Assembly: GCA_017480745.1 (NCBI GenBank)
Contig: JAFUSA010000031.1
Span: 13,792 to 77,791, forward strand
DNA: 64,000 bases
Direction: 5' to 3'
From: Alphaproteobacteria bacterium
Lineage (GTDB): Bacteria > Pseudomonadota > Alphaproteobacteria > RF32 > CAG-239
Position 1 is the stretch's first letter; each line of letters begins with the position of its first letter. Of the stretch, positions 22,982-64,000 are shown in pieces. Below the pieces are notes generated by a model. That model saw only the letters and a program-made list of their open reading frames with translations, had not been told where the DNA came from and ran no database searches. The position numbers and the translations under genes were made by a program.

Positions 22982-24460
22982 TTATTCTGCCAAACGAAAC
23001 AAATCAAATGGTAAACCATTAACGGTAATATAGGCGATAAGCAGGCAAAAAACGGCAAAAATTTGCAACATATTTAATATGTTTTGATTCTTTGCTAACG
23101 GAAAAATACGCGGCAATATTTTTAACAACCAGTTAAGAGCATAAATTCCCACGGTAATAAGTATAAGCTGAGCAAAAATTCCCGCCTGAATAATCTCCGT
23201 CTTATATGGAACCGCCAACTTGTATAAAAAGGCAAAAAATAACAAATACACTGCGCAAAATACATAAAATCCGTAATGTTTTAGATTATCAAGATAAGCC
23301 TGCTCTTGATTTTGGCGCACCATATTTTCCGCCGTTATTTTTTCCACTTTCATTCCGCGCACTGTTTGCGGCTCTTGCTGTTGTTTTTTATATTCCTCCA
23401 TCTGCGCTTTGAATTTTTCTTTAACCATACACAGACCGCATCCTTTCGGAGTAAAATAGGCATGGTTATGATCTTTTTTGCACTGTTTACGATTTTTTAC
23501 CAAATATTCTAAAAGTGATTGCCATTCCAGCGCACTCGGTCGCTCATTGCCTTTGGTAAATGCACGCTCAAACAAAACCATGGTGTTTTTATCAAAATAA
23601 TCATGAATACTATACGGGTGCGGAGCCTGATAAGTATCTTGCCACATGCCATAAGCGTAATGATAATCGGCGATGCGTTCTTGTATGGAAAGCATATTCA
23701 CGCTTTTGCGCGGAACACCTGAAAATGGGTGGATTCCCTCATTTAAAAGTTTGAATATAATAACAGCCAAAGCAAACTTATCCTGTTCCTCCCCCATTTC
23801 TTGACAAGTTTGTTCCATACCCTCGGGATATATATATTCTTCGCTCACATATTCTGCCGGATAACGCTCGTTATTTTCGCCTTTAATGGAAAAACCGTCG
23901 CAATCAAATAAAGCCACCAACATCGTACCTTTATAAACAGAAACGTTTGACGGCTTCAAATCAACAATATAGTGTCCGCAAGCGTGCAATGCCGCCACCA
24001 CCGAAGCAATATTATATGCCGCATAAATTCGATTCACATAACGTTCGCTTATTCCCAATTTTTGCCGCACGGCTTTTTGCATTAAATGATCCATGGATAT
24101 GGCATCATTAGTATCAATCAAAGGCATTAAATAACCAACGCAAAAGCCTTGTTTATCCTCCAATAAGGCAGTAGGCCACGCAATCTGAATATATTCTTTT
24201 TCAACAACTTTATCACCTGTTTTATCTTTGTGTTTAATAACCGGAATATTAGGCCGATTATGCAACATGGCTTCAAGTTTTTTGCGGTTTATCTCGCTGT
24301 TTTTACGGTCATGATAAATCTTAGCAACGCTCTTAGGATGGCTGTTATCTAAATATATACGACCGGAAGCTCCGCCTTTGTTAAGCAATTCTCCCAAAAC
24401 TATTTCTTCGTGGTGTCCGTCAGGGTATAACGCCAAATATTTATCTTGTATTTCTGCCAT
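22982..24460 (-). CDS. Ser/Thr protein kinase, YegI-like, with C-terminal TM helices
   Basis: GGASGRIY, VAKIY, DLKPSNV, DCDGF motifs; ATG overlaps the PP2C stop codon. Confidence 0.85.
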   Translation of the reverse strand: MAEIQDKYLALYPDGHHEEIVLGELLNKGGASGRIYLDNSHPKSVAKIYHDRKNSEINRKKLEAMLHNRPNIPVIKHKDKTGDKVVEKEYIQIAWPTALLEDKQGFCVGYLMPLIDTNDAISMDHLMQKAVRQKLGISERYVNRIYAAYNIASVVAALHACGHYIVDLKPSNVSVYKGTMLVALFDCDGFSIKGENNERYPAEYVSEEYIYPEGMEQTCQEMGEEQDKFALAVIIFKLLNEGIHPFSGVPRKSVNMLSIQERIADYHYAYGMWQDTYQAPHPYSIHDYFDKNTMVLFERAFTKGNERPSALEWQSLLEYLVKNRKQCKKDHNHAYFTPKGCGLCMVKEKFKAQMEEYKKQQQEPQTVRGMKVEKITAENMVRQNQEQAYLDNLKHYGFYVFCAVYLLFFAFLYKLAVPYKTEIIQAGIFAQLILITVGIYALNWLLKILPRIFPLAKNQNILNMLQIFAVFCLLIAYITVNGLPFDLFRLAE

Positions 24461-25206
24461 CACAATCTCGCCCACAATATAGTTTTATCATCTGAATTAA
24501 GACGTTGCGCTCGCTTGTCGTTAAGGGTGTTATTCAAAGCCTGTAAAGCATAGGTTTTACGTTGTTCAATTTCCAAATACTCCGCTACCGGAATAAAAAA
24601 TTTATACTGAATATCATAAAAATTATCGGCAAAAACAAAACCGGTTACACCATCTGTCATCAACATTACCCTATCGACATTTTCAAAAGGTGTAAAACGT
24701 AAACAATCTTGCCAATCACTCATCGTATAAAAATAAGTTTCACACGAAAAATTGCCGTTTTCCGGCTCAGAAATAACAAAATTTTTATAATCTCGCTGCT
24801 TAAAAGCAATACCGGCTCCATCTCCGATATGGAAGAATATTCCTTTGTTATTATGATAAAACACTCCGACTAATGTGGCGGAAAAATTAACCAATTCCGC
24901 CGCGCTTTTACTCCTATTATTTCGATGTAAAAGCAACTTGTTGCGAGCAATTTTAATTGATTTTATAACACTGTTGCGAATATCTTTTATGTCTGTGCGA
25001 ATAAGAGTATCACAAAGTGTCTCACAAATAACTTTTGCGCCGATTTTGCCGTATGGTGCAGACCCTGCACCATCTGACACAACGGCAACCAACTTGTTTT
25101 TGGCAATTTTGGAACAGCTAAAATCTTGACATGGCAAATTTTTTATGCGGTGCATTGCACCACAAATACTGGTAGCCAAAACTTTAATTTGTTCCTTGCC
25201 TGCCAT
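24460..25206 (-). CDS. PP2C-family phosphatase, YegK-like
   Basis: PCQD, VSDGAGS, HIGDG, MTDGV and DDKT motifs. Confidence 0.9.
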   Translation of the reverse strand: MAGKEQIKVLATSICGAMHRIKNLPCQDFSCSKIAKNKLVAVVSDGAGSAPYGKIGAKVICETLCDTLIRTDIKDIRNSVIKSIKIARNKLLLHRNNRSKSAAELVNFSATLVGVFYHNNKGIFFHIGDGAGIAFKQRDYKNFVISEPENGNFSCETYFYTMSDWQDCLRFTPFENVDRVMLMTDGVTGFVFADNFYDIQYKFFIPVAEYLEIEQRKTYALQALNNTLNDKRAQRLNSDDKTILWARL

Positions 25207-25209
25207 CTG

Positions 25210-25890
25210 TTAATTCTCGTTCCACTCAGTTATGTCATCAAGATAATTGTTTGCATTTGGTGCGGCTTTTGATATGCAGGAAACACTGCGACTAAGCCAT
25301 AGAAAAAATTCGGTAAATTTTAAGCCGGTCAAACGTTTGGGTGGCAATAGAGAAAATTTTGCTAACTTATCAAGGTTGGCGCCTTGTGTGCCAATAGCAT
25401 GAATCACAACTTTTTTATTTTTCTGCGCATAACGGCATATTTCCGCCGCATCTTCCCAACCATAATCGGTTGGTTCTCCGTCGCTGATTAAAAAAATCCA
25501 CGGTCTTTTAGAGGTTATACCACAACTATCATACAAACATTTTTGCTCTTCTATTTTTTGCAAAGCAGTTTCCATAGCTTTTCCAAGCGGAGTAAGACCG
25601 CCGGCTTCCATTGTCGGCGCCGTAAAATTCATAGCATCAACCCAATCGGTTTCAACACTCACCTCATCTTCGCCTGAAGCTTTAATAATCAGAAGCTGCA
25701 CCCGCGAACTGGCGTCTATATCTTCCTTCAATTCTTTCTCCAACGCTTTAAGTCCGCTGTTGAGTTGTTTTATCGGCTCATCGCGCATAGATCCGGAACA
25801 ATCTAAAACTAAAACGCAAGGAGTGCGCTCGTTGGCGTTTTCGGCAAATTCTACATAAGGTATGCGTTCCATATTATTTTTATCAGCCAT
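25210..25890 (-). CDS. vWA-domain protein, TerY/YegL-like
   Basis: MIDAS DCSGSM, GGLTPLG, RPWIFLISDGEPTD, FFLWLSRS. Confidence 0.9.
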   Translation of the reverse strand: MADKNNMERIPYVEFAENANERTPCVLVLDCSGSMRDEPIKQLNSGLKALEKELKEDIDASSRVQLLIIKASGEDEVSVETDWVDAMNFTAPTMEAGGLTPLGKAMETALQKIEEQKCLYDSCGITSKRPWIFLISDGEPTDYGWEDAAEICRYAQKNKKVVIHAIGTQGANLDKLAKFSLLPPKRLTGLKFTEFFLWLSRSVSCISKAAPNANNYLDDITEWNEN

Positions 25891-27246: not shown

Positions 27247-27374
27247 TTTTTCCTCAAAAAATTTCGTATCATGGTGATATTAAAATAAAAAATTTTTAAT
27301 TGCAGTAATATCTTTTTTCTATCCACATAAAATATATACCGCCGACTTTGTTGCGGCGGTATATTAGTAATAGG

Positions 27375-28034
27375 CTATTTTACCAAAATATAAAACAGAA
27401 TTTCATTTCCGGCTCCGGGAGTTCCTTTCGAATTTGCCGCATTCGCACAATATGTTACGGCTTCTTCCATATCTGCCGGAATAGAACTGAACACATGTCC
27501 TGCTGGTCCCTGAATTTCCATTTTCATGGCATTTGATACCGACCAGTCCTTAGTTGCCAATTCTATACATATCTCCGCATCAAAAGGAAGACCATAGCCT
27601 ATATAAAATGATTTATTATCATCTGTTGCACCTAAAACAACAGAGTTTCCAAAAACGTTTGCCACTTTAATAGCTATATTGGCGTGTTGCTGTTGTGTAT
27701 CTACGATCATTTCATCGGGTAATATTTTGGCTTTTCTAATTATCGAACAGCCATCACCAGAACAATATCCAGTTCCACAATAACAAGAAACGCCATCATA
27801 GCTCCTTTGCGGAGCAAAAAATGTTCTCACATTGCCGGCAATTAAGGTTATTTGCTCTATGGTTTTATTGATTCTATACTTTTGCATAGCTTTTGAATAT
27901 CCGGCGATGCCACCGACAGAGAGCACGCCGATTATGGCCAGAACGCCTAACATCTCAATCATAGAGCGTCCGGACTGGCTCCCTTGCTCCTTGCGTGAGA
28001 GAGTATCATTATTTTTTATTTTTAAGTTTCTCAT
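27375..28034 (-). CDS. Type IV pilin-like protein (pilin 2)
   Basis: G/RSMIEMLGVLAIIGVLSVGGIAGYSKAM, KAKILPDEM, ICIELATKDW. Confidence 0.88.
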   Translation of the reverse strand: MRNLKIKNNDTLSRKEQGSQSGRSMIEMLGVLAIIGVLSVGGIAGYSKAMQKYRINKTIEQITLIAGNVRTFFAPQRSYDGVSCYCGTGYCSGDGCSIIRKAKILPDEMIVDTQQQHANIAIKVANVFGNSVVLGATDDNKSFYIGYGLPFDAEICIELATKDWSVSNAMKMEIQGPAGHVFSSIPADMEEAVTYCANAANSKGTPGAGNEILFYILVK

Positions 28035-28068: not shown

Positions 28069-28241
28069 AAAATAACCGCCCGATAAGGCGGCTGGAAGCT
28101 CTAAACTATCATCTATCCAATAGCGTTGCGTATTTGCCACAGGTTTATTCCACAACCTTCCAGCCATGCTGGAAATATTTTACGTCACAAAGGACGGATA
28201 GATAAGAGGTTTAGAGACCTCAGACGAATTTTACCTCATCT
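28069..28241 (-). ncRNA. Pilin leader RNA, divergent copy D (candidate riboswitch/attenuator)
   Basis: Same helix order as the three + strand copies; pseudoknots CUCUAA/UUAGAG and UAUCUAUCC/GGAUAGAUG; antiterminator GGCUGGAAG/CUUCCAGCC overlaps terminator AGCCGCC/GGCGGUU-AUUUU. Confidence 0.75.
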
Positions 28242-28247
28242 TGTTTT

Positions 28248-28275
28248 ATCATATCATAAAAAATGCAAAAGTCAA
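28248..28275 (-). promoter_or_regulatory. Promoter of pilin leader D
   Basis: TTGACT (28275-28270), 16-nt spacer ending TGA, TATGAT (28253-28248). Confidence 0.7.
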
Positions 28276-28353: not shown

Positions 28354-29109
28354 TTATTTCACACTATTGATTTCCGCTTGAAAATCTTCTGCATTATAAG
28401 ATTGAACCGGCTTACCGTTAACAAACACAGACGGCACGCCTCTGATATGAATTTTTTGTGAAAGCACGGCAATTTCACCCAAATCATCGGCAATTTCCGT
28501 AGAATCCACATCGGCTTTGTATTTTTCCATATCCAAACCCAAATCTTCGGCAACTTTATCTACGGCTTTTTTATCCATAACTTCTTTGCTGTCCATAACT
28601 TTTTTATAAAAATCAATAAACTTATTCTGTTTATGCGCAGCAAAACCAGCCTTTGCCTGATATGGTGAAAGCGGTGTTAAAAAAGTAAGCGGTTTGAACA
28701 CAAACTTAACATCCGGATTATCAGCCATAATCTTTTCCATGGTAGGAGCCAACTTTTTGCAATATATGCAAGAAAAGTCAAAGAATTCCACTACCGTAAC
28801 CTTGGCATCTGCCGGACCAAATGTCGGTGCATTTTCCGTGCCATTAATTTCATCGGCATATTTGGCAACGGCTTCCTGTTGTTCTCTTTCTGCTTCTTCT
28901 TGCAATTGGAGTTGATAAGCCTCTAACGCATCAACAATCATTTTCGGATTTTTTTTAAGCATAGTGGCCAATTCTTCTTCCGACACTTGTCCACCCGACA
29001 ACTGAACAATCGAATTTCCCTTTACACCGCTGATTTTGCAACCGTTAAGCAAAGAAAACGATGCCAAAATAACAGCGATAACGGAAAGAATTATTGAAAA
29101 ATTTTTCAT
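28354..29109 (-). CDS. DsbA/Com1-family disulfide oxidoreductase
   Basis: VVEFFDFSCIYCK and IRGVPSVFVNG motifs. Confidence 0.88.
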   Translation of the reverse strand: MKNFSIILSVIAVILASFSLLNGCKISGVKGNSIVQLSGGQVSEEELATMLKKNPKMIVDALEAYQLQLQEEAEREQQEAVAKYADEINGTENAPTFGPADAKVTVVEFFDFSCIYCKKLAPTMEKIMADNPDVKFVFKPLTFLTPLSPYQAKAGFAAHKQNKFIDFYKKVMDSKEVMDKKAVDKVAEDLGLDMEKYKADVDSTEIADDLGEIAVLSQKIHIRGVPSVFVNGKPVQSYNAEDFQAEINSVK

Positions 29110-44013: not shown

Positions 44014-44640
44014 ATGAAAAACTTAAATGTAAAAAATCAAAACGGGCGCTCAATGATTGAGATGCTGGGTGTTCTTGCTATCATCGGTGTTTTATCGGTT
44101 GGCGGAATCGCGGGATACAGCAAGGCGATGATGAAATATAGAATCAATAAAACCATTGAGCAGATAACGTTAATTGCCGGTAATGTGAGAACATTTTTTG
44201 CTATGCAAAGGGATTATGAAGGACTTGATTCAAGCACAGATGATGGTAGGAAAATAATTCAAAAAGCCAAACTTGTGCCCGATGAAATGTGGAATGAAGC
44301 CGGAAACGGTTTGGTAAATGCGTTTGGAGATATGTTTTATGTAAATGCAACAGGAAAGTCGGCAGAGGATTCTTATGGTAATAGAGCGTTTCAAATTCAA
44401 CTGCATGAAATACCAGAAGAAGCCTGCATTGAGTTATTATCGCATGATTGGCAAGCCAGCGGTATGGTAGCTATATATACAGATACCAGTTCCAAAGGAG
44501 AAGTAATTGCTAAGGTTCCGCTCAGTGTTGAGGCGGCAACCAACTTCTGTGCCGATAATAGTGGCGATGATAAAGACACTCTTTTTATGTTTGATATAGA
44601 CTGGAACAGGTGGTCTGACGGACTTTACATTTATGAATAA
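44014..44640 (+). CDS. Type IV pilin-like protein (pilin 3)
   Basis: G/RSMIEMLGVLAIIGVLSVGG, KAKLVPDEM, IPEEACIELLSHDW; AGGAG SD. Confidence 0.88.
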   Translation: MKNLNVKNQNGRSMIEMLGVLAIIGVLSVGGIAGYSKAMMKYRINKTIEQITLIAGNVRTFFAMQRDYEGLDSSTDDGRKIIQKAKLVPDEMWNEAGNGLVNAFGDMFYVNATGKSAEDSYGNRAFQIQLHEIPEEACIELLSHDWQASGMVAIYTDTSSKGEVIAKVPLSVEAATNFCADNSGDDKDTLFMFDIDWNRWSDGLYIYE

Positions 44641-59406: not shown

Positions 59407-59605
59407 AGAACTTCGGTTCGGAGCTCTCAAAAGCTCTTATTAAGGTTGGCATCAAAAGATGTCATTAGTAAATGTGATAATATCTCCGATTTGGGTTGGG
59501 GAGTCTGTAACGGATGTTCAGAGCATTTGCTTAAAGGTTATGGAAATCATTTGCCTTAATATGATTTTTGAGCTCTCCCGACCGCCATTTAGCGGTCAAT
59601 TTTTT
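59407..59605 (+). ncRNA. Pilin leader RNA, copy B (candidate riboswitch/attenuator)
   Basis: Starts AGAAC-UUCG-GUUC; pseudoknots CUCAAA/UUUGAG and UAUUAAGGU/GCCUUAAUA; terminator GACCGC/GCGGUC-AAUUUUUU. Confidence 0.85.
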
Positions 59606-59639
59606 AATGTGTTAACCTCTGAATTTAGGAGATAAAATT

Positions 59640-60281
59640 ATGAAAAAATGTAATTTAAAAAATAATGATTATCTCTCCCCTTGCGGGAGAGAGAGCCAGT
59701 CCGGACGTTCAATGATTGAGATGTTGGGCGTTTTAGCTATCATTGGCGTGCTTTCTGTTGGCGGAATCGCAGGATACAGCAAAGCAATGATGAAGTATCG
59801 TATTAACAAAACCATTGAGCAGATAACCCTCATTGCCGGTAACATAAGAACATTTTTTGCTCCACAAGGAAATTATGCCGGTCTGGATAATGAAAAAGTA
59901 ATCCGAAAGGCCAAACTTATACCTGAAGAAATGATAGAGTATTATGTTGAAGGACCAGGTATTTCAATTGACTATGAAGGCACAATAAAATCCATAATAA
60001 ATCCGTTTGATGGCGCATTTATTATTCATACAGAAGAAGATTATAGAGCGTTTGGTTTTTCGTTAACAAACATACCGGAAGAAGCCTGTATAGAACTTCT
60101 AAGCAATGATTGGACTGAATTGAATGTAACGCATTTTTGCCACTCAGGTCCTCCTGTATGTATTACGCCGAAAGCAGATTTTGATAAAATACTGACCTTG
60201 TGTGAAAAAGCAAAAGATAGCTATTTGTTTCTTTTCTTTGAATTAAAAAATGAATTACCCGGCGATGGAAGCTGGTTATGA
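59640..60281 (+). CDS. Type IV pilin-like protein (pilin 4)
   Basis: G/RSMIEMLGVLAIIGVLSVGG, KAKLIPEEM, IPEEACIELLSNDW. Confidence 0.88.
   Translation: MKKCNLKNNDYLSPCGRESQSGRSMIEMLGVLAIIGVLSVGGIAGYSKAMMKYRINKTIEQITLIAGNIRTFFAPQGNYAGLDNEKVIRKAKLIPEEMIEYYVEGPGISIDYEGTIKSIINPFDGAFIIHTEEDYRAFGFSLTNIPEEACIELLSNDWTELNVTHFCHSGPPVCITPKADFDKILTLCEKAKDSYLFLFFELKNELPGDGSWL
59672..59692. repeat. REP-like GC-rich palindrome inside the prepilin leader peptide
   Basis: TCTCTCCC-CTTGC-GGGAGAGA; a degenerate copy in the opposite gene-relative orientation lies at 27981-28003. Confidence 0.65.
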
Positions 60282-63682: not shown

Positions 63683-64000
63683 ATGAAAAATTTAAATAAT
63701 ATAAATAATGAATCCGGTCGCAGTATGATTGAAATGTTGGGCGTGTTGGCAATTATCGGTGTTTTGAGCGTTGGCGGAATCGCCGGATATTCCAAAGCCA
63801 TGCAAAAATATCGCATTAATAAAGCCATAGAACAAATAACTCTTATTGCCGGAAATATACGTGCGTTTTTCGGACCGCAGAAGAATTATGTCGGGGTGAG
63901 ATGTGTTTGCGATAACGGTGGTTATACTGGTGAAACTACTAACGATGGCTGTCCGATAATTAAAAAAGCCAAGATATTACCGGATGAAATGATTACTCTC
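63683..64000 (+). CDS. Type IV pilin-like protein (pilin 5, truncated by the window end)
   Basis: Manual translation MKNLNNINNESG/RSMIEMLGVLAIIGVLSVGGIAGYSKAMQKYRINK...KAKILPDEM; GAGGAG SD. Confidence 0.88.
   Translation, partial: MKNLNNINNESGRSMIEMLGVLAIIGVLSVGGIAGYSKAMQKYRINKAIEQITLIAGNIRAFFGPQKNYVGVRCVCDNGGYTGETTNDGCPIIKKAKILPDEMITL

Follow-up and report, generated by a model that had tools for sequence, protein, structure and literature searches.

A pilin-gene leader with two long-range pseudoknots and alternative helices: a probable transcription-termination switch distantly related to sRNA-Xcc1

The D Leader and Its Pilin Gene

The DNA discussed here, which will be called the window, is a stretch of 64,000 nucleotides from contig JAFUSA010000031.1 of an Alphaproteobacteria bacterium (assembly GCA_017480745.1). 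Its minus strand holds, at 28275..28069, a promoter, a series of hairpins, two long-range pseudoknots (PK1 and PK2), and an antiterminator/terminator pair, all of which lie 5' of an open reading frame (ORF) for a type IVb-like pilin. A sequence-only reading of the window had described this leader, D, as a fourth and diverged copy of three others, A, B, and C, and the elements that it had named in D are all present in the sequence where it had placed them (Table 1). The D promoter matches the consensus at 10 of 12 positions with the TG present, and its -35 box and T-rich spacer are identical in leaders A-D. Transcription would be expected to start at about position 28241, which corresponds to a leader RNA of 173 nt (28241-28069, minus strand).

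The product of the ORF behind the leader has both features by which a type IV pilin is recognized, namely a pilin domain (PilS_N, PF08805, at 26.3 bits with a cut-off of 22; Bundlin at 21.6 bits) and a prepilin cleavage motif with a Glu at +5 (G/RSMIE). A prepilin peptidase and several T2SSE ATPases are encoded in the genome, as is one GGDEF protein; pili and signaling by cyclic diguanosine monophosphate (c-di-GMP) are thus both possible in this organism, with nothing that ties either of them to the leader RNA.

Table 1. Elements of leader D and of the pilin gene that follows it. Pairing percentages and both-side changes were taken from a MAFFT alignment (A5) of 88 D-type copies, of which D is the first row.
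Feature	Position	Strand	Details
Sigma-70-type promoter	28275..28248	(-)	-35 TTGACT 28275-28270; 16-nt spacer; extended -10 TG-TATGAT 28253-28248
P1 hairpin GAUGAG/UUCGUC	28240-28223	(-)	5' end; 99.0% paired; both-side changes at 1/6 pairs
P2 hairpin GAGGU-CUCUAA-ACCUC	28221-28206	(-)	100% paired
P2 loop, PK2 5' strand	28216-28211	(-)	
Linker AUCUAUCC, PK1 5' strand	28203-28196	(-)	complementary to P7 loop
P3 short hairpin GUC ... GAC	28195-28184	(-)	80.6% paired; both-side changes at 2/3 pairs
P4 hairpin UUCCAGC-AUG-GCUGGAA	28174-28158	(-)	99.2% paired; both-side changes at 3/7 pairs
Antiterminator 5' strand GGCUGGAAG	28165-28157	(-)	helix 99.7% paired; matches closing-helix 5' strand of Xcc1-like three-way junction
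P5 stem GUUGUG/CGCAAC	28156-28125	(-)	98.3% paired; encloses internal loops GAAUAA ... AAAUA and small variable hairpin P6
P7 hairpin GCUAU/AUAGU	28124-28105	(-)	97.0% paired
P7 loop GGAUAGAU, PK1 3' strand	28118-28111	(-)	
UUAGAG, PK2 3' strand	28104-28099	(-)	complementary to P2 loop; flush with P7 and antiterminator 3' strand
Antiterminator 3' strand CUUCCAGCC	28098-28090	(-)	4 nt (AGCC) common with terminator 5' strand
Intrinsic terminator AGCCGCC-UUAUCG-GGCGGUU, then AUUUU	28093-28069 (stem 28093-28074)	(-)	8 pairs, 5 G-C
Shine-Dalgarno AAGGAAG	28047-28041	(-)	
Regulated pilin ORF, 219 aa	28034-27375	(-)	prepilin motif G/RSMIEMLGVLAIIGVL

A Conserved Fold with Two Mutually Exclusive Helices

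The D leader folds with a predicted energy of -63.1 kcal/mol (z = -5.0), which was equaled by none of 200 dinucleotide shuffles. A partial descriptor, consisting of P2, P7, an 8-bp PK1, and a 6-bp PK2 with G-U pairs allowed, was satisfied by 1 of 20000 dinucleotide shuffles of D, and its relaxed form by 344 of 20000. The check which that reading had proposed, i.e. scoring D by a model of A-C only, was carried out using a covariance model (R1) built from alignment A2 and our own structure, which was run with the filters off on both strands of the whole window. R1 gave 200-226 bits to A-C and 26.5 bits to D (rough E 8e-8), with the next-best match in the window, i.e. the best background, at 14.5 bits. 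The identity of D to A-C is 58-62%, as compared with 76-80% among A-C. No Rfam family matched over D or A-C at the gathering score in the whole window, or at E up to 10 in a search of D, B, and A.

The claim that a copy of divergent sequence keeps the whole architecture, and thereby lends independent support to both pseudoknots, turned out to be stronger than it had been made, as the 88 D-type copies show compensatory, both-side changes at all 8 pairs of PK1 and all 6 of PK2, as well as at 6/6 pairs of P5, with most PK1 pairs occurring as four pair types. Overall, 94.9% of the cells in this alignment are paired, compared to 80.2% in column shuffles and 34-45% when the partners are slid by 1-3 columns, and the observed value was reached by 0 of 500 shuffles on four of five measures. 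Five of the PK2 pairs fail in 0 to 2 of the 88 copies each, and the first is formed in 37/88; in the alignment the last PK1 pair is unpaired in 55/88 and the first PK2 pair in 51/88, part of which is explained by variation in linker length. The A-C-type copies (84 distinct rows) gave 96.8% paired cells against 81.8% in column shuffles and 36-45% with slid partners, both-side changes at 8/8 pairs of PK1, 6/6 of PK2, and 7/7 of P5, and no match on any of the five measures among 500 shuffles. In an unbiased scan of all column pairs (MAFFT, 82 A-C-type copies), the top-ranking helix of all those possible was PK1, and the next was P5.

G-U pairs are common on the pilin strand (in the D-type copies, U-G in 63/88 at P1 and G-U in 39/88 at P2), and since each of them would be an A-C mismatch on the opposite strand, the structure belongs to the transcript of the pilin strand. 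This bears on the proposal that the complementarities are features of the DNA, such as places where DNA recombines or inverts or what is left of a mobile repeat, and not RNA structure, which could be argued from the many copies per genome and from the location of relatives in the sRNA-Xcc1 family (see below) in integrons and islands, some beside tRNA genes. However, compensatory changes preserve the pairing in copies that differ almost completely in sequence, the G-U pairs are not only frequent but strand-specific, and the element sits between a promoter and a ribosome-binding site, all of which makes an explanation at the level of DNA scarcely credible.

The 3' strand of P4 doubles as the 5' strand of the antiterminator, which makes P4 an anti-antiterminator. 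In the D-type alignment, columns 98 and 99 of this shared strand covary with their P4 partners (86 and 85) as well as with their antiterminator partners (180 and 179): a C in column 99 goes with G in both partners, and a U goes with G or A. Antiterminator pairing is found in 99.7% of the D-type and in 97.7% of the A-C-type (type 1) cells, and the terminator stem is paired in 100% of the 88 D-type copies, with both-side changes at 1/5 pairs. That the shared strand covaries with both partners, while P4 is 99.2% and the antiterminator 99.7% paired, indicates that selection has kept two mutually exclusive helices, and such covariation of one strand with two alternative partners is the signature of a switch. 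Two of the features expected of a riboswitch are found here, i.e. a conserved, covarying structured domain and an expression platform of mutually exclusive helices (P4 and terminator versus antiterminator). Furthermore, the AAU and AA.A of the P5/P6 internal loops are invariant in the 88 D-type copies; as these nucleotides are unpaired, their invariance suggests that the loops are a candidate binding site.

The same observations have to be set against the alternative of a constitutive structured 5' untranslated region, which would act as a fixed attenuator or stabilizer and impose a low and constant read-through on some 177 strongly promoted pilin genes without any regulated switching. The gene context, which indicates no ligand, the near-consensus promoters, for which damping would be sensible, and the fact that the family precedes unrelated genes in other genomes are all in keeping with this alternative, but a fixed attenuator needs no mutually exclusive helices kept by covariation, such as P4 and the antiterminator, nor does it fit with invariant internal-loop nucleotides in 88 copies that suggest a binding site. 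We therefore regard it as unlikely. Attenuation by a leader peptide was considered and rejected, since the AUG frames in the A-C core differ in length and end among A, B, and C (by our own reading) and P5 covaries as RNA.

Two complementarities to the Shine-Dalgarno (SD) region were also seen. In the A-C-type leaders, the all-pairs scan showed that the P4 5' strand UAUCUCC is complementary to the SD region GGAGAUA (in copy B, 59474-59481 with 59628-59634), and the D-type consensus has AACUUCC where PK2 meets the antiterminator 3' strand, which could pair with the SD region GGAAGUU (in D, 28047-28041 with 28100-28094, where 6/7 positions pair). Both partners are nearly invariant, so that covariation is uninformative on such a candidate pairing.

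The Leader and Pilin Family of the Genome

The genome has a family of some 177 pilin leaders, about half of them of the D type, and leader D is typical of that half; the sequence-only reading was right in seeing a further copy of the leader in D, while its count of four was far too low and the copies are of two subtypes. A six-frame scan of the genome (1,598,228 bases in 34 contigs) found 175 ORFs with the pilin N-terminal motif, which have a nearly invariant N-terminus (GRSMIEMLGVLAIIGVLSVGGIAGYSKAM), are mostly 180-280 aa long, and differ greatly in the segment from the first Met to the motif (8 to 98 residues, with recurring classes). R1 found 85 matches to A-C-type leaders at E < 1e-40, or 83 distinct ones after removal of 2 duplicates from overlapping tiles, and R2, a covariance model built from the D-type copies of the genome, found 96 D-type matches at E < 1e-25 (94 distinct leaders), among which D ranks 44 at 158.7 bits. 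Leaders and pilin ORFs make up about one tenth of the genome.

When leaders were located by nhmmer, 163 of the 175 pilin-motif ORFs had one on the same strand within 400 nt upstream (79 of the A-C type and 84 of the D type), and at least three of the 12 ORFs without a leader are at contig ends; conversely, 163 of 177 leaders have a pilin motif within 400 nt downstream. The different P5 loop of D may, as the sequence-only reading had suggested, reflect a different specificity; both types precede one and the same gene family. The nearest neighbors by relatedness of the pilin C-terminal domain have leaders of the same type in 93/159 cases, as compared with 79.3 +/- 7.3 for shuffled labels, which amounts to a weak link between leader subtype and pilin relatedness; for the genome as a whole, the link of leader type to pilin subfamily or to prepeptide length was weak or absent.

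The pilin-motif ORFs within the window are at 27375-28034 (-), 44014-44640 (+), 59640-60281 (+), and 63683-64000 (+), and the pilin ORFs are rich in cysteine. A DsbA-like ORF with a thioredoxin fold (Pfam Thioredoxin_4 and DSBA; 28354-29109, minus strand), which has its own terminator, ends just 5' of the D promoter, and a cluster of ORFs for a protein kinase, a PP2C phosphatase, and a VWA-domain protein lies downstream of the D pilin region (22982-25890, minus strand). The weak R1 match of 14.5 bits falls within AT-rich spacer DNA behind the D pilin ORF (27256-27422, minus strand) and terminates in AAUUUUUU; it is probably just the terminator region of the pilin gene itself. Elsewhere in the genome, partial leader copies corresponding to the 5' half or the 3' half of the A-C profile alone (C4:28080-28207, C12:10863-10990, C29:182965-183088, and others) may be decayed or recombined leaders.

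Relationship to sRNA-Xcc1

R1 detected the leader in 21 of 24 further species of its genus, and R2 detected it in 18 of 140 further genomes that represent the class at one per family. Among the relatives in the class, one (L133, in which P4, the antiterminator, and the terminator can be read) is followed by a pilin-like ORF, and the others precede ORFs which, by our own reading of the N-termini, are lipoprotein-like or secreted or have no identity; a rumen metagenome-assembled genome labeled Alphaproteobacteria (L131) has a pilin that is 40% identical. Compared with Rfam, the class relatives gave sub-threshold matches of 28-41 bits (cut-off 53) to the small RNA (sRNA) family sRNA-Xcc1 (RF02221), which cover exactly the 3' domain of the leader. 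In the cmscan alignments the closing helix of Xcc1 corresponds to the antiterminator, its first arm with the A-rich loop to P5/P6, its second hairpin to P7, and its joining strand to the PK2 3' strand.

Searching the class with RF02221 gave matches above the cut-off in 5 of 141 genomes and at E <= 0.001 in 23 of 141, including one unpublished genome (G065) that enters into no other result given here. The scores form a continuum from 76 bits down to 32-35 bits, the lower end being four D-type copies of this genome (32.1-34.7 bits), which are its best; no copy in the genome reaches the 53-bit cut-off, and D itself gave no match to RF02221 at E up to 10. In the reciprocal direction, R2 found, in 65 kb, the bona fide Xcc1 loci L154 and L177, which score 57.9 and 57.7 bits with the Xcc1 model, at E 3e-4 and the intermediates L163, L160, L168, and L159 at E 1e-9 to 6e-5, while it gave no match on the highest-scoring, GC-rich Xcc1 loci. 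The three-way junction architecture of RF02221 and homology by reciprocal model search are thus both found for the leader. Because of the reciprocal and continuous matches on the one hand, and the lack of a match of D to RF02221 on the other, D is a distant relative of the sRNA-Xcc1 family and not a member by the criterion of Rfam. What is new in this is that the 3' domain of the pilin leaders is, as judged by these model searches, a sub-threshold relative of sRNA-Xcc1.

This relationship reverses the view of D as the diverged form that the sequence-only reading had taken. The P5/P6 loop of D (GAAUAA ... AAUA) resembles the sRNA-Xcc1 consensus (AAUACAA ... GGAAUAA), and it is the A-C core that belongs to another class. 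The two core classes, GAAUAA ... AAUA of the D type and GGAUGUUCAG ... CUAAAGR of the A-C type, both occur in other families of the class, from which it follows that the split between them is old.

Two-Part Complements in Xcc1 Loci

Whether the 5' domain of the leader has a counterpart in bona fide Xcc1 loci was addressed with 32 hits above the Rfam cut-off, 25 of them from genomes sampled across the phylum (24 of 151 being above the cut-off) and 7 from the class search. For each hit the P7 loop and the joining strand were parsed, and the 160 nt upstream were scanned for their complements, with Watson-Crick pairs only, gaps of 1-14 nt, and at least 10 nt in total. A two-part complement, i.e. 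that of the joining strand followed 1-14 nt later by that of the P7 loop, which corresponds to both pseudoknots, was found in 28 of the 32 loci, as compared with a mean of 1.64/32 and a maximum of 5 in shuffled sequences. A looser per-locus shuffle test (G-U allowed, gaps up to 40), which has no power, gave 6/32 at p <= 0.05. The paralogues L152 and L175 differ by compensatory changes (UACAGG/CCUGUG versus ACUAGG/CCUAGU), and no other Rfam family was found over the upstream module of the Xcc1 loci. Read from these complements, the plan with two pseudoknots is a property of the whole Xcc1 family.

A second copy of the two-part sequence is found just downstream in 15/32 loci (shuffled mean 1.92, maximum 6), and it contains the SD sequence and start codon in 6 of the 9 loci that were read through (L185, L191, L197, L204, L183, and L199). 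In those loci the two-part sequence is seen twice, once some 60-100 nt upstream and once directly downstream with GGAG and AUG embedded in it. A downstream copy of this kind can pair with the same receptor, which would hide the ribosome-binding site, and this suggests a competition switch for translation in the Xcc1 loci. The pilin leaders of this genome have no copy of this kind above background near their ribosome-binding sites (5.64 vs 5.63), the platform here being the terminator.

These arrangements are relevant to the possibility that the terminated leader, or its Xcc1-like 3' domain, is a trans-acting small RNA directed at other mRNAs. In its favor, sRNA-Xcc1 was detected in X. campestris as an RNA of ~88-100 nt (PMC2996969), and terminated leaders would be abundant RNAs of ~170 nt. 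Against this, 163 of the 177 leaders lie directly 5' of a pilin ORF on the same strand, the variable segments pair in cis at 11.79 of 12 pairs as opposed to 6.76 with foreign copies, and in 25 of 29 bona fide Xcc1 loci the start of an ORF of 45 aa or longer lies no more than 54 nt downstream. Published accounts also place Xcc1 upstream of symE in Xanthomonas cassettes, where a "divergent regulatory mechanism" was suggested (10.1101/2025.06.18.660453), and, in APSE phage, in front of an ORF6N gene (10.1101/2020.03.17.996009). Position and strand with respect to the ORFs argue for action of the Xcc1-type RNA in cis, and regulation in trans appears very unlikely for the pilin leaders. Of 27 ORFs downstream of Xcc1 that were compared with Pfam, 8 received a name (Bro-N with or without P22_AR_C in 3, Rha in 2, Rap1a, and HTH) and 19 were without a family.

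The paired segments differ between copies to such an extent that they resemble barcodes, with 74 distinct ones among 75 gap-free A-C-type copies and 52 among 53 gap-free ones of the 88 D-type copies. This leads to another alternative, in which the near-unique PK1 and PK2 sequences let each 5' module, possibly as a separate short RNA, open its own receptor alone, such that pilin genes or mobile-element cassettes are switched individually. The second copy over the ribosome-binding site in bona fide Xcc1 loci would agree with it, as would a U-run (e.g. GCGGUAUUUUUGUGCC) that in L185, L191, L197, L182, and L187 follows the P3 hairpin behind the upstream barcode and, by our own reading, resembles an intrinsic terminator; the Xcc1 5' module might accordingly exist as a separate short RNA. 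In this genome, however, there is neither a terminator after P3 nor a barcode copy near the ribosome-binding site, and near-perfect matches to foreign copies occur about as often as they do after position-wise permutation (17 vs 17.4 +/- 4.6 and 27 vs 21.3 +/- 6.4). Selection for orthogonal barcodes, of which there is thus no sign, is not supported, and individual addressing of the leaders is improbable to a degree only slightly less than action in trans.

A wider and speculative form of this idea concerns the Xcc1-type RNA in general, which would be a modular, barcode-addressed switch and not a free sRNA. In it, the 5' module (P2 loop and linker) and a second module (ribosome-binding site or terminator platform) would compete for the receptor (P7 loop and joining strand), and barcodes of ~14 nt that are nearly unique would make each of ~177 leaders or cassettes addressable, allowing for a one-at-a-time or stochastic choice of pilin, possibly via short 5'-module RNAs acting in trans. 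We consider this doubtful, about as much so as a fixed attenuator. In one of the Xcc1 loci (L154/L177, G039:C1:749745-751817), three tandem copies are seen at a spacing of ~994 nt; their barcodes are individual, and the ORFs downstream of them are near-identical. This tandem resembles a cluster of five Xcc1 copies reported in Xylella (PMC12189769).

Model of Regulation

The interpretation that we favor, with a probability of about 65%, is that D is a cis-acting 5' leader RNA which controls premature transcription termination of its own pilin gene as a switch of the Xcc1 kind. Sequence and covariation show all of its helices, both pseudoknots, and both mutually exclusive helices. Beyond that, termination and read-through would be the two outputs, the docked fold would be the ON state, and a factor at the P5/P6 loops, either a small ligand or a protein, would shift the balance between them.

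In the proposed model, P1 to P4 would form first as transcription proceeds from about position 28241, and P4 would sequester GGCUGGAAG, which would allow the terminator (28093-28069) to form, with termination as the default. In the alternative fold, the RNA would adopt a three-way junction of the sRNA-Xcc1 kind, whose arms would be P5/P6 and P7 and whose closing helix (GGCUGGAAG/CUUCCAGCC) would be the antiterminator, removing AGCC from the terminator stem. The 5' domain would then clamp the junction through PK1, formed by the linker and the P7 loop, and through PK2, formed by the P2 loop and the strand between P7 and the closing helix, and once docked would stack on the antiterminator and favor read-through. 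Docking is thought to favor the antiterminator because P7, PK2, and the closing helix are contiguous on the 3' strand with no spacer.

It has to be noted that several observations weigh against this model. In nested models, with pseudoknots excluded, P4 plus terminator has an energy of -38.6 kcal/mol and the antiterminator fold -33.8 kcal/mol; the predicted leader would be OFF by default, yet with the OFF fold favored by only ~5 kcal/mol and the pseudoknots left out, it can only be guessed in which direction the leader regulates. The OFF fold, moreover, would in principle also allow both pseudoknots. The U-tract of D is short and interrupted (UUAUUUU), and on the fifth measure of covariation, the number of further pair types in the D-type copies, the observed 96 equals the shuffled mean and was reached by 254 of 500 shuffles. 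Finally, the genes indicate no ligand, being pilins here and elsewhere lipoprotein-like, antirepressor-like, or without identity, unlike those of classical metabolite riboswitches; a coherent gene association pointing to a ligand was found neither across this genome nor in other families or the Xcc1 loci.

The system is of wider interest as well. With ~177 natural variants, a single genome provides in effect a finished set of compensatory mutants, through which the fold is unusually well defined and directly testable. The pilin genes behind the leaders, 175 ORFs in 1.6 Mb, form an extraordinary multigene family in a gut or rumen lineage that is uncultured, and the leaders may explain how this family is restrained or varied.

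Comparison with Known Systems

Pilin genes of Clostridioides are controlled by c-di-GMP riboswitches of the terminator/antiterminator kind. The D leader shares with such riboswitches an aptamer-like domain in the 5' untranslated region, a closing helix that competes with an intrinsic terminator, and pilin genes as targets. It differs from them in that it matches no Rfam riboswitch, that the gene associations of its family are heterogeneous, and that ~177 copies are present in one genome. The Rfam models of c-di-GMP-I and c-di-GMP-II in particular gave no match at the gathering score in the window or at E up to 10 in D, B, and A.

Long-range pairings that compete between 5' and 3' regions are also known from the mRNAs of type I toxins (hok, tisB). 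In the Xcc1 loci, similarly, there is a single partner sequence for which the ribosome-binding region and an element far to the 5' side would compete; the folds are different, such that the two resemble each other in their logic alone, and D, with its terminator platform, does not share this arrangement.

The title of Chen et al. 2011 (RNA Biology) reportedly calls sRNA-Xcc1 trans-acting, and the Rfam submission of the family is said to have gone with that paper. Later work still treats Xcc1 as a trans-acting sRNA (PMC12189769). In the accessible portions of the literature on sRNA-Xcc1, on riboswitches and pseudoknots, and on pilin riboswitches of Alphaproteobacteria, no account was found of Xcc1 as part of a cis leader with two pseudoknots, and what matched Xcc1 together with riboswitches or pseudoknots were Rfam papers and unrelated ones on c-di-GMP. 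The leader and sRNA-Xcc1 have the same three-way junction in common, with a closing helix that is rich in G, internal loops rich in A (AAUA ... GAAUA) in the first arm, a hairpin as the second arm, and a joining strand of 5-7 nt. They differ in that the Rfam model spans the 3' half alone, with the 5' domain, the pseudoknots, and the expression platform outside of it, and in that the platform here consists of P4 and an intrinsic terminator, whereas in Xcc1 the downstream barcode copy can hold the SD sequence and the start codon; they differ as well in the mode of action, the literature treating Xcc1 as acting in trans. The comparison suggests a new reading of a curated family, in which sRNA-Xcc1, annotated in many genomes as trans-acting, would be the 3' half of a larger cis leader with two pseudoknots and a competing second site.

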